Below are positions 25,498-31,626 of a DNA stretch of 64,000 bases, piece by piece (positions within the stretch are counted from its first letter, which is position 1; every line of letters starts with the position of its first letter). The notes under the pieces were generated by a model. That model searched no databases and was not told the DNA's origin. It saw only the letters and a program-made list of their open reading frames with translations. The stretch covers positions 6,821 through 70,820 of the forward strand of contig JBFYNQ010000076.1 in NCBI GenBank assembly GCA_041304265.1, given 5' to 3'. Origin of the DNA: Candidatus Bathyarchaeota archaeon. GTDB taxonomy: Archaea > Thermoproteota > Bathyarchaeia > TCS64. The translations under genes were made by a program, and so were the position numbers.

Positions 25498-26307
25498 CTA
25501 ACGCAGGATGTCGGCGAACAAAGCTATGTTATGCCTAACTTGAGGGATGTCGTACATACCGATGTTCCAGGCGTCTATGAAATCGCGAAACCCGAGAGCA
25601 TACCTGATACAGTCATCGCCCTGGGCCCTATAACGCCCCGCGGCTAGTATCTTAATCACATAAACACCCTTCCCAGCATCGTGGCACGCCCTCAGCGCGT
25701 CGAGACGCATCTGCTGCGTACCATCGTCGACGTATGTACCCTTCATGTTGAGAGGCGCGCAGACGATATCGATCTCCGGCTCGTCCACTACCTGGCGCAG
25801 GGTATCGGTACTATGGGTTGATAGCGCGATCTTCTTGATCCTGCCCGCATCCCTAGCCTCCAAATACGCCTCGAGCGTCCCCTTGCGCCCCTTAAAGTCC
25901 TGACTAATGTAGGCGCGATCATGGGCGTCCTTCCTCTCTACCGGCCTCGGCGGCACAATGTGGAGGAACATAATGTCGATGTACTCGGTGCCAAGATCAT
26001 TACAGGCGAAGTCAACCGCTTTGACGCCCTCCTCGTAAGTGGCAGCATTCGACTTATCCGCGACGACTACACTACTCCTCTTAACCAGCTTTAGTGCCTC
26101 GCGAACATGGGGATGCGTCCCATAGTCATCCGAGGTGTCCCACATGTAAACGCCGAGCCTCGCCGCCTCCGCGAGTATCTCACCACCTTGCACGGGTGTC
26201 TTATCGCCCTGCTTCATATCGTCATCCGGCCCCTTCTTGAAGTTGAAGGGCTCCGTGCCATAGCAGAGCCTGCTCACCGTCAAACCGCCCAGATTAGCCG
26301 TCTGCAT
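25498..26307 (-). CDS. aldo/keto reductase
   Basis: AKR-like N-terminus from the internal ATG (MQTANLGGLTVSRLCYGT). DTSDDYG and TIM-barrel-like periodicity. The start is uncertain (26307 or 26325). Confidence 0.65.
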   Translation of the reverse strand: MQTANLGGLTVSRLCYGTEPFNFKKGPDDDMKQGDKTPVQGGEILAEAARLGVYMWDTSDDYGTHPHVREALKLVKRSSVVVADKSNAATYEEGVKAVDFACNDLGTEYIDIMFLHIVPPRPVERKDAHDRAYISQDFKGRKGTLEAYLEARDAGRIKKIALSTHSTDTLRQVVDEPEIDIVCAPLNMKGTYVDDGTQQMRLDALRACHDAGKGVYVIKILAAGRYRAQGDDCIRYALGFRDFIDAWNIGMYDIPQVRHNIALFADILR

Positions 26308-26401
26308 CCGAATCGGGGACAGCATGCACCCCACCCCTAGATAAGCAATGCCATGTGAAAACAGGGCAAGGCTTGATACCCCAGACGACACTAATTCAAC
26401 C

Positions 26402-26971
26402 ATGAAGAAGTCTATCGGAATCGGGACCTATGCACTGCCCTCCCCCGTCTGGGTCGTCGGTACATACGACTCAGCCGGCAAACCAAACCTCATGACAGCT
26501 GCATGGGGCGGCATATGCAACAGCCGCCCGCCCTGCGTCTACGTCAGCCTCCGCAAGGCTACCTACAGCCACGGCAACATCATGACGAGGAAAGCATACA
26601 CCATCAACATCCCCTCTGAGAAGCACCTAAGAGAAGCCGACTGGCTTGGAATAGCCTCAGGGCGCGACTTTGACAAGTTCGCAACAGCCAAACTAACTCC
26701 CATCAAGAGCACAAACGTCGACGCACCCTACATCAATGAGTTCCCAGTCGCCATAGAATGCCGTGTCAAAGAGATCGTAGAGCTCGGCCTCCACACCCAG
26801 TTCGTCGGCGAGATACTCGACGTGAAGGCTGATCCCGCAGTCCTTAACGACGGAGGAATGATAGACATAGAGAAGGTGAAACCCGTCATCTTCACAGCCG
26901 GCTCCAGCACTTACCACTCCGTAGGGAAAAAGCTGAGGGATGCCTTCACCGTCAAAGAAATGAAGGATTAA
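26402..26971 (+). CDS. flavin reductase-like FMN-binding (split-barrel) protein
   Basis: From ATG 26402: MKKSIGIGTYALPSPVWVVGTYDSAGKPNLMTAAWGG..., typical of the flavin reductase domain family. Confidence 0.7.
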   Translation: MKKSIGIGTYALPSPVWVVGTYDSAGKPNLMTAAWGGICNSRPPCVYVSLRKATYSHGNIMTRKAYTINIPSEKHLREADWLGIASGRDFDKFATAKLTPIKSTNVDAPYINEFPVAIECRVKEIVELGLHTQFVGEILDVKADPAVLNDGGMIDIEKVKPVIFTAGSSTYHSVGKKLRDAFTVKEMKD

Positions 26972-27322
26972 CACTTCAGAGAATCCAACCTCCGGCGGAA
27001 AAGATTGTGGAAACATGAATGGATAAATATAAGATCCAAAATGCTAACAATATGAGAATGATTAAGGGATAACGAACGCTGAAACGTAATTACTATATAG
27101 GATCACCGGCGAATAGGAAAAGGCCTAATAACTCAACATTTGCAGAGGAAAAACTGCCTTTTTCTAGGGAAGTATTAAATATTGATCTATATCACCACTC
27201 TATCTAGCCGGAAAAAGGGAACACGTGCTCCTCTGCACGAGTTTGGATCGGCGTGAGGCTAACCTCACGGGGGTGCGTGACACTCTTTACGGTGAATTAA
27301 AAACGAATGGTGAAAAAAGCGA

Positions 27323-28120
27323 ATGGGAGTATGGATAGTTCAAGACACCAAGTTCGTTGCGCTCCTGTTGCTCATAGCCTCCTTCGTTCTATTCTACGCA
27401 TACATGGCCCTAGCTAAGGGCGGGATGAAGATCAAAGCCCGCACCTTCCCAGCCGTAGCCGCTATTCCAGAGGCTATAGGCAGGGCGGCCGAGATGGGTA
27501 GACCCGTCTATTATTCGACGGGGATGGGACAAGGAACGCTAAACAACCAGCTTAACGGACCCCAGACACTGGCCGGAATAAGCATACTCGGCTACACGAC
27601 CCGCCTCTGCGCGAAGAGCGGGGTCAAGCTCACCTACTTCACTCCGATTGCGGACTCGCTTCCCCTAGTTGAGGAGACTATGAGGACTAGCTATATGGCG
27701 GAGGGTAAGCCCGAGGAGTTTGACGCGGCGACGATGATCAACTTCCAGAACGAGCAGAGCCCCTACCTCACCGCCTCCCTCGGCTGGATACAGAGGGAGA
27801 AGCCCGCATCGAGCTTCCTACTCGGAGGCTTCTACTACGAGGCGGTAGTCATCGGCGAGGCAGGCAATACAATCGGCGCGATGCAGATCGGTGGCTCAGC
27901 GAACACACACCAGTTGCCCTTCCTCGTGGCGACCTGCGACTACACCCTCATCATGGAGGAGCTATACGCAGCCTCCGCCGAGATATCGGGTAACCCCGAT
28001 GTCCTCGGCAGTCTGAAGGGGGAGGACCTGCTAAAGTTCTTCGTACTGATACTACTGGGAATCGGATTCGTTCTAGCGCTGGTCAACAACAAGGCGCTGA
28101 TAAACTTACTGAAGGTGTAA
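27323..28120 (+). CDS. uncharacterised bitopic membrane protein (operon gene 1 of 4)
   Basis: 265 aa. N-terminal TM (FVALLLLIASFVLFYAYMAL) and C-terminal TM (LLKFFVLILLGIGFVLALV) flank a ~190-aa soluble domain. No recognisable motif. Confidence 0.7.
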   Translation: MGVWIVQDTKFVALLLLIASFVLFYAYMALAKGGMKIKARTFPAVAAIPEAIGRAAEMGRPVYYSTGMGQGTLNNQLNGPQTLAGISILGYTTRLCAKSGVKLTYFTPIADSLPLVEETMRTSYMAEGKPEEFDAATMINFQNEQSPYLTASLGWIQREKPASSFLLGGFYYEAVVIGEAGNTIGAMQIGGSANTHQLPFLVATCDYTLIMEELYAASAEISGNPDVLGSLKGEDLLKFFVLILLGIGFVLALVNNKALINLLKV

Positions 28121-28126
28121 TGAAAG

Positions 28127-28783
28127 ATGTCACAGGTATACAAGCGTGAACTGGTCTTCATCACAACAGGCATAGTCGCCTTGGTTATGATGCTGGACTA
28201 TTTCTTTGGAAAGAACATTCCCGGCATCAGCGGCGCCGGAAACCTATCTTCGACGCTGCAGACATGGGCGCTGGTCATTCAGCTGATGGCTATCGGACTA
28301 GGCGCCATAAACCTCATCCAGGTTCACTATAGGCAGATTAGTAGGAAGACGCCCATGATGGTGTACAGTGCAGTATTCATGGTGTTCTTCGCCTTCCTGC
28401 TCATCCTCGGCCTATACAAGCTAGCCACCGGAGTCGAGCTTTATCCCTACACATGGATCTTCGCCAATGTCTACACTAGCCTCGGAGCAACGCTCTACGC
28501 CATCACTGGCTTCTACATCTTCTCAGCAGCCTACCGCGCCTTCAGGGCAAGGAACATCGACGCAGCCATCCTCCTCATTGGAGGCATATTCGTACTGCTC
28601 GCAAACGCCCCCATCGGCGAGGTCATCTGGGGAGGATTCCCACTCATCGGCAACTGGTTCAACAACGTCGGTCAGGTCCCCGGAATGAGGACCTTCACTG
28701 TTGTGGGTGCATTGGGACTACTGGCCTACGGATTCAGGGCCCTGATCGGTAAGGAGAGGGGCTTCTACTCGGAGGTTCAGTAA
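28127..28783 (+). CDS. uncharacterised polytopic membrane protein (~6 TM; operon gene 2 of 4)
   Basis: 218 aa. Starts 6 nt after gene 1. Six hydrophobic segments. No transporter signature recognised. Confidence 0.7.
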   Translation: MSQVYKRELVFITTGIVALVMMLDYFFGKNIPGISGAGNLSSTLQTWALVIQLMAIGLGAINLIQVHYRQISRKTPMMVYSAVFMVFFAFLLILGLYKLATGVELYPYTWIFANVYTSLGATLYAITGFYIFSAAYRAFRARNIDAAILLIGGIFVLLANAPIGEVIWGGFPLIGNWFNNVGQVPGMRTFTVVGALGLLAYGFRALIGKERGFYSEVQ

Positions 28784-28784
28784 G

Positions 28785-29645
28785 ATGAGCGGACAATCTA
28801 TCTGGGATAAGCTGCAGAATGTAGATAGGAGAGTATTCTACTGGATACTCTTCATCGCTCTGACGATTCCCTTCCTCACCCCAATTGGGCTCCCCATCGC
28901 GATCACGCCCTCGACGCAAGCCTACTACGACGGCCTCGCGTCGATTCAGCCCGGCGAGTACGTCGTGCTGAGCATCAACTCGGGCGTAAGCGCCTGGGGT
29001 GACTGCCTACCGGCAATGGTCGCCTCTGTGCACCAGGTACACGAACAGGGTGGAAAGCTCATCGTTTGGAGCATTGGCTACAACGACGTTGACATCACTT
29101 GGGCGAAGATCAAGGAGAAGAACCCTGGGACATTTGCCGACTGGGTTGAGGGCGAAGATTATGCGTACTTTGGCTACTGCCCGCCACAGGAGACTAACGT
29201 CGCTCTCTTAAGGGACGACATCAGGGCGGTCTACCCTAAGGACGTCAGGGGAGTCGCCACGGATGACATACCCATGATGCAGGGAGTAAATGGGGCGAAC
29301 AAGATCAAGTTCGTTCTGTCGAGCGACACGGGCGACGCGCAGATGTACTACATCAGGCAGTGGAAGAACGGCCAAGTCAACTATGAGGGGACCGGTATGC
29401 CTCCGCTCGTCGCCGAGATGGGCATCGCCATGAACAAATCGGGCGATATGGCCTACTTCCTCTCCGGTGACGAGTTCGGCCTAGTGGCCGGCTCGAGGGG
29501 CGCGGCCGAGCTCGAAGCCCTAACCGACTTCAAGGGCGACGCCACAATCACGATGGACTCTATCAGTGTCAGCCATGTACTACTCGTACTAGCCATCATA
29601 CTGACTAACATTGGTATGTTCGCTACCAGGGGGAACAAGAAATGA
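28785..29645 (+). CDS. uncharacterised bitopic membrane protein (operon gene 3 of 4)
   Basis: 286 aa. Starts 1 nt after the gene 2 stop. N-terminal TM (VFYWILFIALTIPFLTPIGLPI) and C-terminal TM (VSHVLLVLAIILTNIGMFA) flank a ~220-aa domain. Same architecture as gene 1. Confidence 0.7.
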   Translation: MSGQSIWDKLQNVDRRVFYWILFIALTIPFLTPIGLPIAITPSTQAYYDGLASIQPGEYVVLSINSGVSAWGDCLPAMVASVHQVHEQGGKLIVWSIGYNDVDITWAKIKEKNPGTFADWVEGEDYAYFGYCPPQETNVALLRDDIRAVYPKDVRGVATDDIPMMQGVNGANKIKFVLSSDTGDAQMYYIRQWKNGQVNYEGTGMPPLVAEMGIAMNKSGDMAYFLSGDEFGLVAGSRGAAELEALTDFKGDATITMDSISVSHVLLVLAIILTNIGMFATRGNKK

Positions 29646-30325
29646 TTGAGAACATAGCCGCACCATACCCAACCGACCCTCTCGCCATACTAGGCGTCTG
29701 GGTAGCGCTAGCGCTGATGCTTGCCATTTACAGCTACCCGCTATGGAAGGAGAACCCAGTGTACAGGTTCGCAGAGCACATGTTTGTCGCGACCGCTTTA
29801 GCAATCGGCATCATCGTCAACCTAACGAGCCTGAGAAACACTGCTATCACACCTCTCTTGGGCGGAAACTATCTGATGATAATCCCGATCATATTGGGCG
29901 CTCTCATGTACTTCCTGCTCATCCCGAAGCAGAGGTGGCTCAGCAGGTACCCGATCGCGGTACTGGTAGGCTCCTCGCTGGGCCTTGGCCTAGCGAGCAA
30001 CCCGCTGCCTAGCATAGTCAACCAGATCATAAGCACGGTCACGGCGCCCGCCGCCGGTGCCCCAGTCTGGGGCTGGTTCCCAACATCACCGACGGGCGAC
30101 TGGTTCAGCTTCGTCTTTGTCGCGGTCGGTTGTATAGCGTCGACGATGTACTTCCTGTTGACCTACGAGCACACAGGGCCTGTAAAGCCGGTAACCATCG
30201 CGGGCAGATACTTCATCATGCTCGCCCTGGGCGCCTACTTCGGCAACACAGTGCTCTTCAGATTCAGCATGCTCGCGGAGCGCGGACAATACATCCTGAA
30301 GGTACTCGGGCTCGTACCGTTCTAG
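29642..30325 (+). CDS. uncharacterised polytopic membrane protein (~6 TM; operon gene 4 of 4)
   Basis: 227 aa. ATGA overlap with gene 3. Same architecture class as gene 2. Confidence 0.7.
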   Translation: MIENIAAPYPTDPLAILGVWVALALMLAIYSYPLWKENPVYRFAEHMFVATALAIGIIVNLTSLRNTAITPLLGGNYLMIIPIILGALMYFLLIPKQRWLSRYPIAVLVGSSLGLGLASNPLPSIVNQIISTVTAPAAGAPVWGWFPTSPTGDWFSFVFVAVGCIASTMYFLLTYEHTGPVKPVTIAGRYFIMLALGAYFGNTVLFRFSMLAERGQYILKVLGLVPF

Positions 30326-30424: not shown

Positions 30425-31285
30425 TTGAACCCCTCCGACCTCAAGGAGCTCCTCGGCGAACCCCTAATACCCAAGCGAGTCTCTGTCGAGAACCTCATGC
30501 TCGTTGCCCTTGAACTCAGACCGTGCAGCCAGACAACAATCCCTGCGGAGCTACCCAGCGGCCAAAACATGGGGGAGAGAATTGACGCCCGATTCAAGCC
30601 GAGGCTCGAGCGGCTCCGCCTCATGCACGACCAGAAGGACAAGCTCAGGGAGATAGCGGAGATCAGGAAAGACATGGCGCAAGCCTTCGACGAGGTCGTT
30701 GAGGGCTCACAGGAGTATAGGGGGCTCTCCTCGTGGGCGAAGTGCCTAGGGCTCAAAGTCGACCAGGTAGAGATACGCCCCACACTCCACGAGTACTACC
30801 TCTACAGGGATAGGGAGACACTAAAGGAGCTGCAGAGGCTCATGCAGGAGAGAGGTAAACTACGCGTCGAGGCCATGAAGAAGCCCGACCCGTCTCGCGG
30901 ACAGCTCCAGTTTGCCTATCCCGAGGAGTTCAATGGAGCATGGATACGCCAGATGGGACGGCTACTCGGCTACCCCGACTGCTGTGTAGAACAATACGCA
31001 TCCGACAGGGAGCAGGGAGTCAACGCCGAGGCACGCGCCGCGTCGCAGCTCAAGGAGCTAGGCTCGGACCCCGACCCACACACCTACCTCGCGAGCTACT
31101 TCTTCCCTTGCAACCCAACGTGCCAGAAAGCGAGGGAGAAGGGAAAGTTATACCACGGAAAACTCTCGGAAGCACTACCAGAAGCCGGGGAGGCATACGA
31201 GTCGATAATAAGGGAGAACCTAGAACGCGTCCGCAGGCAGCCCGAGATAATCAGCGAGTACCTGAGTAGACTGAAGGGCTTCTAA
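30425..31285 (+). CDS. DUF483-like archaeal protein (GYPDCC motif)
   Basis: TTG start. C-terminal half contains LLGYPDCCVEQY and FFPCNPTCQKA, as I recall for the archaeal DUF483 family. Same strand, 100 nt downstream of the four-gene operon. Confidence 0.5.
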   Translation: MNPSDLKELLGEPLIPKRVSVENLMLVALELRPCSQTTIPAELPSGQNMGERIDARFKPRLERLRLMHDQKDKLREIAEIRKDMAQAFDEVVEGSQEYRGLSSWAKCLGLKVDQVEIRPTLHEYYLYRDRETLKELQRLMQERGKLRVEAMKKPDPSRGQLQFAYPEEFNGAWIRQMGRLLGYPDCCVEQYASDREQGVNAEARAASQLKELGSDPDPHTYLASYFFPCNPTCQKAREKGKLYHGKLSEALPEAGEAYESIIRENLERVRRQPEIISEYLSRLKGF

Positions 31286-31626
31286 CTTTTCCTGAGTGGA
31301 ATCTCACCCTGCTTGACGGGGATGCGCTCAACCTTGAATGTGACGGGGCGCTCCGAGTCGGGGCAGCTGAAGTACTTTATCTTGTCTATGTAGTCCCAGG
31401 GCTCGGTGACGTTCCTCTCCATCGCTGAAGTGAGGGGTAGTATGGCGCTGAAGGCGGCGAGGCAGACACTGTCCGTCTCCTCGAGCACGAGCCTACCGGG
31501 GTTGCTCGTGATTGTGATCTTGTCGCCTACTTTGTATATCTTGCAGGGACCCTTGACGTGTGGAGGAGCACCATCTAGGCTCCTCGGCGCCTGAACATCA
31601 ACAACGGTGAAGACTACCTTGTACAT
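31282..31626 (-). CDS. TIGR04076-like small protein (second copy in window)
   Basis: GPCKIYKVGDKITI...CLAAFSAILP...FSCPD pattern, similar to 20310..20579. Confidence 0.45.
   Translation of the reverse strand: MYKVVFTVVDVQAPRSLDGAPPHVKGPCKIYKVGDKITITSNPGRLVLEETDSVCLAAFSAILPLTSAMERNVTEPWDYIDKIKYFSCPDSERPVTFKVERIPVKQGEIPLRKS

Follow-up and report, generated by a model that had tools for sequence, protein, structure and literature searches.

A Conserved Four-Gene Membrane Cassette of Archaea and Bacteria and Its Linkage to an Actin-Fold ATPase

Introduction

The ion-translocating Rnf/Nqr complexes combine a homologous pair of six-transmembrane (6-TM) subunits of opposite topology (RnfA/RnfE) with an anchored periplasmic subunit (RnfG/NqrC) and an anchored cytoplasmic subunit (RnfB), and RnfC/NqrA is a peripheral subunit with a barrel-sandwich domain. 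In the PilM-PilN-PilO and GspL-GspM assemblies, a cytoplasmic protein of the actin fold is held tightly by bitopic membrane proteins that bear periplasmic domains. Proteins of the GlmL/MutL, EutA and DdrA type, which belong to the ASKHA (acetate and sugar kinase, Hsc70 and actin) superfamily, go with B12-dependent mutases and lyases. Here we describe a cassette of four genes, g1-g4, that resembles each of these systems in part. It occupies positions 27323-30325 of a 64,000-nt stretch of a Candidatus Bathyarchaeota archaeon contig (JBFYNQ010000076.1, positions 6,821 to 70,820; hereafter the window). The four genes encode the subunits of one conserved heteromeric membrane complex, and this complex serves as the membrane module in a larger system with an ASKHA ATPase.

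The g1-g4 Operon and Its Conservation

All four genes are on the + strand: g1 (27323-28120; 265 aa) encodes a DUF6754 membrane protein, g2 (28127-28783; 218 aa) a six-TM protein, g3 (28785-29645; 286 aa) an alpha/beta domain between two TM helices, and g4 (29642-30325; 227 aa) a second six-TM protein. The genes are separated by a 6-nt gap (g1/g2) and a 1-nt gap (g2/g3) or joined by an ATGA overlap (g3/g4), and Shine-Dalgarno-like motifs (GAAGGTG, GGAGGT and AGGGGGA) are present 8-14 nt 5' of the three internal ATGs, which places those of g2, g3 and g4 inside the preceding gene. The four open reading frames (ORFs) had been described in an earlier note on this DNA, and their coordinates, lengths and junctions were reproduced exactly. 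The translational coupling suggested there is borne out by the tight junctions and by the Shine-Dalgarno-like motif at every internal start, and the AT-rich spacer before the operon was delimited to 351 bp (26972-27322; GC content 0.40-0.42 as against about 0.55 around it).

Related loci were examined in two sets, about 165 in total. For 85 loci from reference genomes, ORFs were called and then classified by iterated hidden Markov model searches; a further 80 loci from metagenomes were gathered by searching from the side of a ~375-aa partner protein (see section The Linked ATPase and Its Partner). The order g1-g2-g3-g4 is retained in essentially every sufficiently long locus of the reference-genome set, and the ordered cassette is also present in about 21 of the 80 metagenome loci; each cassette contains every one of g1-g4 exactly once. 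As related loci carry all four families, and in one and the same order, g1-g4 are real genes and not chance ORFs. Whether the order is conserved across archaeal genomes had been raised as a question in the earlier note; it is, and the conservation extends to Bacteria.

The nearest relative is a Bathyarchaeota metagenome-assembled genome with 98% identity (locus L006). Further archaeal loci belong to Culexarchaeia, Methanomethylicia, Nitrososphaerota and Desulfurococcales, and bacterial loci, at 26-33% identity, to Zixibacteria, Marinimicrobia/Fidelibacterota, Ignavibacteria, Eisenbacteria, Armatimonadota, Aquificota and Clostridia; the cultured Firmicute Anaerobranca gottschalkii also carries the cluster. 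A search for g3 homologues found 124, and a scan of one genome per species gave at least 476 g3 matches. The family sizes are at least 2,378 clusters for DUF6754 and 1,277 clusters for g4 (50% identity, E <= 0.001), and no match to DUF6754 was found on plasmids. Given the invariant gene order, the presence of one copy of each gene per cassette and the translational coupling, g1-g4 encode one heteromeric, four-subunit membrane complex that has been conserved. Such a complex had been proposed from the window alone, and the gene order fixed over two domains of life now backs it.

The Linked ATPase and Its Partner

Gene linkage in other genomes shows that g1-g4 do not make up the entire system but provide its membrane module. 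In many genomes, genes for an ATPase, the ~375-aa partner and two small proteins are linked to the cassette. When neighbouring ORFs were clustered, the ATPase and partner genes emerged as direct neighbours of the cassette in Bathyarchaeia, Marinimicrobia/Fidelibacterota and Desulfurococcales. In A. gottschalkii (L086), g1-g2-g3-g4-ATPase-partner form one tight six-gene cluster, and on a Zixibacteria contig (L087, 2186-13250) the ATPase and partner genes are followed by three tandem cassettes. The usual order in the 80 metagenome loci is a small 4-TM protein, a ~100-130-aa protein, the ATPase and the partner, and in about 21 of these loci the ATPase operon is followed by one to three cassettes. 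Two or three tandem cassettes per single ATPase pair are found in Zixibacteria, Eisenbacteria, Ignavibacteria and related metagenome contigs (besides L087, in L062, L071, L075, L081, L105, L125, L135, L141 and L160). Within a genome, tandem copies share 36-58% identity; conservation is highest for g1 (53%) and lowest for g3 (43%).

The ATPase (~605 aa) matches the Pfam family MutL (PF13941, the GlmL family with actin fold of the ASKHA type) with E ~1e-120 and 408 bits, and has an additional ~140-aa C-terminal region. Its scores are below all NCBIfam cutoffs of the GlmL and Or-4 models (234 vs 475, 216 vs 600 and 172 vs 204 bits). As the Pfam model is matched and every NCBIfam cutoff is missed, the ATPase is, by these profile scores, a separate GlmL/MutL subfamily.

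The partner is a soluble protein of ~375 aa with weak matches to barrel-sandwich-hybrid and KOW domains (examples, L086 5548-6663 and L057 2817-3944; proteins P0241-P0360). It has an invariant N-terminus (AYTPGL) and the motifs QGIFGIGGE, GVAITG, TEGFG and NGATQIRAGVxRPE, and its sequence identity among Firmicutes, Marinimicrobia and Archaea is 48-55%. The family comprises at least 7,995 clusters, often without the ATPase or the cassette nearby. A role as a biotin or lipoyl carrier was ruled out, as the Lys residue at the hairpin position used for biotinylation is not conserved; for the same reason, the names "biotin carboxyl carrier protein" and "NusG" given by JGI look over-annotated.

Comparison With Known Protein Families

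In scans of the curated Pfam and NCBIfam collections with archaeal and bacterial members, the only families obtained for the cassette and the two genes after it were DUF6754 (g1), DUF483 and TIGR04076 (see section Neighbouring Genes). g1 is a full-length member of DUF6754 (PF20539; E = 3.5e-66, 223.4 bits vs a threshold of 27, model positions 9-255 of 257), and the g1 proteins of bacterial cassettes match this family with E values of 1e-106 to 1e-113. The view that none of the four proteins has a DUF signature therefore fails for g1. DUF6754 itself is without recorded function, structure or partners, and a literature search found no mention of it. For g2, g3 and g4, archaeal and bacterial members were both scanned and gave zero Pfam or NCBIfam families.

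Searches directed at particular kinds of function were likewise negative. No match to ABC_tran, BPD_transp, ECF or CbiQ was found in g1-g4, none to FMN_bind, Fer4 or RnfD in the cassette or neighbouring genes, and none to PADLOC anti-phage models in g1-g5 (g5 being the next gene downstream), the ATPase or the partner. Profiles of g1, g2, g3 and g4 gave 0 matches to PDB sequences in hmmsearch at E <= 10, and the corresponding searches with g5, the ATPase and the partner gave nothing significant. The earlier note had recognized no characterized family in the operon, and this stands: no characterized transporter, respiratory, redox or defence family matches g1-g4. Literature searches on DUF6754, PF13941, DUF483, GlmL, and glutamate mutase with MutL found nothing relevant.

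A divergent member of a characterized transporter family could in principle lie beyond the reach of such searches, as membrane proteins change fast. The profiles, however, were built from 22-114 diverse sequences and matched nothing in Pfam, NCBIfam or the PDB at E <= 1-10, and a set of four subunits that includes two double-anchored alpha/beta proteins fits no transporter class known to us, so that we regard this explanation as improbable. Since the libraries and literature searched record nothing beyond one DUF number for these proteins, and the defining features of the known systems tested were not found, we rate the g1-g4 system as categorically new, and it probably represents a kind of membrane machine not described before; a distant link might still emerge from searches of the AlphaFold database or with HHpred.

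g1 and g3, the Double-Anchored Alpha/Beta Subunits

AlphaFold models and hydropathy agree with the earlier description of g1 and g3 as proteins with N- and C-terminal TM helices around a soluble domain. In g1, an outside N-terminus is predicted to be followed by a TM helix and then by an alpha/beta domain in the cytoplasm, in which invariant Glu, Arg and Gln residues abound; a second TM helix lies at the C-terminus. Its model (predicted local distance difference test score, pLDDT, 74; predicted template modelling score, pTM, 0.70) has the same order of elements as that of g3. Confidence is low for residues 150-210 of the g1 model, where conservation is highest; the lack of partners in the model may be the reason. 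Some Bacteria have a long form of g1, in which the first TM helix (TM1) and DUF6754 are preceded by a cleavable signal peptide and then by an extracellular domain of ~90 aa that is FN3-like and contains a YYYKV motif (L076 4256-4660, L087 2186-2600 and L122 4042-4440).

The g3 model (pLDDT 87, pTM 0.84) consists of a TM helix (residues 15-31), a six-stranded alpha/beta domain (42-246) and a second TM helix (252-283). An invariant DRR precedes TM1, the domain contains the motifs SSDTGD and GSRGGAELE, and the C-terminal TM helix has a conserved His and a conserved Asn. In Foldseek searches of the PDB, the best match of the g3 model had E = 2.5e-3 and a TM-score of at most 0.33, which is generic Rossmann-like and non-significant; the best match of the g1 model (E = 0.47) was also non-significant.

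The weak g3 matches include halves of GT-B glycosyltransferase folds (OtsA, glycogen synthase, VldE). Together with the invariant polar motifs SSDTGD and GSRGGAELE, and with the frequent position of the bacterial ATPase-partner gene beside CdsA, LpxB, AccA or Lgt, they could point to a membrane-embedded enzyme of envelope lipids or glycans, in which g3 would catalyse outside and g2/g4 would present a lipid-linked substrate. The matches, however, do not reach significance, the neighbours are heterogeneous, and the envelope genes are housekeeping genes of Bacteria. Archaea, with their different lipids and envelopes, carry the cassette as well. Such an enzyme would also leave the ATPase pair and the tandem cassettes unexplained, and we consider it distinctly unlikely.

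g2 and g4, Membrane Topology and the Question of Duplication

Family-averaged hydropathy shows six hydrophobic segments in each of g2 and g4, in agreement with the six or so TM helices first estimated. g2 has an invariant loop, SAAYRAFRARN, which is predicted to be cytoplasmic and to connect helices 4 and 5 (L4-5), and g4 has the conserved loops YKENPxYRFAEH and WxSRYP, also predicted to be cytoplasmic. No conserved cysteines are present in either alignment. In some g4 homologues, including P0484 (475 aa) and P0499 (500 aa), a coiled-coil-like, Lys/Glu/Leu-rich insertion of 260-290 aa is located between TM4 and TM5; the inserted domains of these long homologues have no Pfam match.

The orientation of each subunit may be deduced from the distribution of basic residues. 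In g1, the family-averaged number of Lys and Arg (K+R) residues is 5.1 flanking the domain and 1.5 and 0.9 at the termini. Its soluble domain is therefore probably cytoplasmic, given this bias and the signal peptide and FN3-like domain that precede TM1 in bacterial forms. The g3 domain, by the invariant DRR before TM1 and the basic C-terminal tail, would face outward, with the N-terminus inside. In the family charge profiles, the conserved basic residues of g2 are at the N-terminus, in L2-3, in L4-5 and at the C-terminus, so that both of its termini are probably inside, whereas those of g4 are in L1-2, L3-4 and L5-6, so that its N-terminus is probably outside, opposite to that of g2. The halves g1+g2 and g3+g4 would thus be inverted in the membrane relative to each other.

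The earlier note had proposed that the operon arose by two-fold duplication of a module. For g1 and g3, this part of the proposal receives weak support. BLASTP gave no match between them, and in hhalign comparisons the E value was 0.012 with small alignments, 0.0044 with ~80 sequences per family and 8.1e-5 with 103-114 sequences per family (probability 61% over 99 columns); the reverse-direction comparison of g3 with g1 gave 0.0076, and probabilities over the runs ranged from 8 to 61%. The aligned register (g1 8-123 with g3 14-113) pairs TM1-helix-strand-helix-strand-helix in both proteins, and this element order matches the two independent AlphaFold models. On these alignments and models, distant homology of g1 and g3 is probable but unproven. 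For g2 and g4, the proposal was not supported: hhalign gave E values of 0.19-0.28, the same as for unrelated pairs, and the sole BLASTP match was a short motif (E = 0.015). With no detectable similarity, common ancestry of the g2/g4 pair is unproven. In addition, charge bias and the signal peptides of bacterial g1 proteins indicate that the two halves would have opposite orientations and would not be parallel copies of one module.

These predicted topologies give the cassette and its partners a subunit-by-subunit architectural parallel with Rnf/Nqr complexes, and the partner weakly matches RnfC_N (E = 0.0015) and TIGR01945 rnfC (E = 0.0078), as might be expected if the system were a cofactor-free relative or analogue of them. 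Against this, archaeal and bacterial members show no Pfam match to Rnf-Nqr, FMN_bind or Fe-S families at E <= 1, and hhalign comparison of g2 and g4 with Escherichia coli RsxA and RsxE gave E values of 0.24-0.8. Conserved Cys residues are absent from g2 and g4, an RnfD/NqrB-like subunit is absent, and the cassette goes with an ATPase instead of an oxidoreductase. A relationship or analogy of this kind is hardly credible. Membership in Rnf/Nqr was rejected, as there are no Pfam matches to its families, no similarity to RsxA or RsxE in hhalign, and no conserved cysteines or cofactor modules.

A Possible Mechanism

Our favoured reading, which we hold tentatively and at somewhat less than an even chance, is that the cassette and the ATPase set constitute a new type of translocation system, one that is modular and coupled to ATP. 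In such a system, g1 with its cytoplasmic domain would pair with g2, and g3 with its extracytoplasmic domain would pair with g4, and the antiparallel g2/g4 pair would provide the translocation path. The outward g3 domain could select the substrate, a role suggested by the fact that g3 differs more between tandem cassettes than any other subunit. The inward g1 domain would dock the ATPase pair, which may drive or gate transfer or release cargo, and the invariant acidic residues of g1 could contact the invariant Arg-containing loop of g2. Cassettes would serve as exchangeable specificity modules, with one soluble set beside one, two or three of them. A broader claim, and a rather doubtful one, is that this represents an ancient class of translocation machines of Bacteria and Archaea. 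Its antiparallel core of four subunits would bear one Rossmann-like domain on either face of the membrane, the actin-fold (GlmL-family) ATPase and its barrel-sandwich partner would power or gate it in place of a P-loop ATPase or an ion gradient, and interchangeable cassettes would determine the substrate.

Several observations weigh against a translocation system. No substrate-, ion- or nucleotide-binding motifs were identified in g1-g4, and there is no transporter among their structural or sequence relatives. No case in which an ASKHA ATPase energizes a small-molecule transporter is known to us. The ATPase is often, but not always, linked to the cassette: neither the ATPase nor the partner was found anywhere in the 64-kb window, and many long loci with the ATPase pair have no cassette within 10 kb. 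The neighbouring genes are heterogeneous and reveal no metabolic or functional theme, and a scan for Rfam riboswitches in 11 bacterial loci and in the leader RNA of the window (see section Promoter-Like Block and Leader RNA) found none that would name a substrate. Finally, the topologies of g1-g4 on which the reading depends are predictions. ABC (ATP-binding cassette) ATPases are near some bacterial loci, without consistent linkage.

The absence of the ATPase pair from the window can be compared with closely related loci. In two sister loci with gene lengths identical to those of the window, the ATPase pair lies 3 kb upstream of g1, in the order MutL-like ATPase, 393-aa partner, M14 peptidase and g1 (L168 5277-11365 and L169 6131-12218). 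In the window (25498-27322) and in L006, an aldo/keto reductase and a flavin reductase are upstream of g1 instead, and L007 is intermediate, with the partner, a flavin reductase and the peptidase upstream. In the window's genome, a rearrangement has probably parted the ATPase pair from the cassette.

The same gene set could alternatively form an assembly platform or a transmembrane coupling or signalling device of the PilM-PilN-PilO or GspL-GspM type, in which the cycle of the cytoplasmic ATPase would be tied to an extracytoplasmic structure or event. The ASKHA nature of the ATPase, the membrane-anchored g1 and g3 with domains predicted on opposite sides, the extracellular FN3-like domain on bacterial g1 and the coiled-coil-like insertion in some g4 homologues are all consistent with this. 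However, genes for pilins, secretins, secretion ATPases or surface structures are not recurrent nearby, two conserved 6-TM subunits with invariant loops are atypical for such platforms, and Pfam scans showed no relation to PilM, PilN, PilO or GspL. We consider a platform of this kind unlikely.

If the translocation reading is true, the system would add a new class to the few known ways of coupling ATP to transmembrane events, and would provide a first function for the GlmL-like ATPase subfamily, for DUF6754 and for three unnamed families. These families are concentrated in abundant, mostly uncultured lineages of sediments and seas (Bathyarchaeia, Zixibacteria and Marinimicrobia). As the physiology of such lineages rests largely on annotation, a conserved multi-gene system of this kind represents a real gap, and the cultured carrier A. 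gottschalkii opens it to experiment.

Promoter-Like Block and Leader RNA

Upstream of g1 on the + strand, a promoter-like block, AAGTATTAAATAT...TCTATCTAGCCGG (27170-27211), is conserved in 8 Bathyarchaeia relatives and is kept even where the upstream gene is different. It would correspond to an archaeal TATA-like box and transcription start region. It is followed on the same strand by a putative structured 5' leader RNA of ~83 nt (27210-27292), which comprises an outer stem (P1), a 10-bp stem (P2) and two internal hairpins.

Folded one by one, the leaders of six relatives with diverged sequences adopt the same architecture (z-scores of -1.8 to -4.3). In a pairing test that used a trimmed alignment and a hand-specified structure, 80.6% of the P1/P2 positions were paired as against 38-65% in slid controls, and 3 pairs were changed on both sides; RNAalifold applied to the raw MAFFT alignment of the leader found no consensus structure. 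A covariance model of the leader matches only upstream of g1 in the Bathyarchaeia clade of the window, and Rfam contains no family for it. The leader is a candidate cis-regulatory element.

Neighbouring Genes

The genes of the system within the window are the cassette, a DUF483 gene and a TIGR04076 gene only. The DUF483 gene, g5 (30425-31285, + strand), begins 99 nt after g4. Its product matches DUF483 (PF04467) with E = 1.4e-8 and 35.2 bits vs a cutoff of 25; the match covers only model positions 37-101 of 122, and a 175-aa N-terminal extension is present, which makes it a distant member of the family. It has a conserved four-Cys motif, GYPxCC...FFPCxPxC. Conservation of this neighbour, which had been put forward as a point to check, is found within Bathyarchaeia: 41 of the first 85 loci have a DUF483 gene after the cassette. 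In L090, L091, L093 and L157 it directly follows the ATPase pair, and since it adjoins either the cassette or the ATPase pair, DUF483 belongs to the system in Archaea.

The adjacent gene g6r (31282-31626, - strand) is convergent with g5, with a 4-nt overlap, and encodes a 114-aa protein of the TIGR04076 family with conserved cysteines (E = 1.4e-17, 64 bits vs the NCBIfam cutoff of 33). A TIGR04076 gene is present at this position in 24 Bathyarchaeia loci. The DUF483 and TIGR04076 proteins are probably lineage-specific accessories of Bathyarchaeia.

Upstream of the operon, the longest ORFs for the aldo/keto reductase (25498-26403, - strand) and the flavin reductase (26348-26971, + strand) overlap by 56 nt at their 5' ends, so that one or both of the true starts are probably further in.

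Comparison With Described Systems

Like Rnf and Na+-NQR, the system has two 6-TM subunits of ~200-230 aa with opposite orientation, here predicted from charge bias, and it has an anchored subunit with an outside domain, an anchored subunit with an inside domain and a peripheral barrel-sandwich-hybrid protein. It differs from them in that an ASKHA ATPase replaces the redox modules and in that g1 and g3 each have two TM anchors. With antiparallel pairs such as EbrAB of the small multidrug resistance family and RnfA/RnfE, g2 and g4 share a similar size, the number of TM helices and an opposite K+R bias; unlike the members of those pairs, they are not close in sequence, with no similarity detectable between them.

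The group II ECF (energy-coupling factor) transporters and the ABC importers that share ATPases offer a likeness of another kind. There, as in the tandem-cassette loci, one soluble ATPase set is combined with diverged membrane modules (here one to three cassettes), and the outward-facing subunit (here predicted to be g3) is the most variable. The present system is distinguished by its four-subunit membrane module and by an ATPase with an actin fold rather than a P-loop, and it carries no ABC, Walker or ECF-T/S signatures. The ATPase itself resembles the ASKHA proteins of the GlmL/MutL, EutA and DdrA type in matching the Pfam MutL and the NCBIfam GlmL and Or-4 models, but in contrast to them it adjoins membrane proteins and not mutase subunits.

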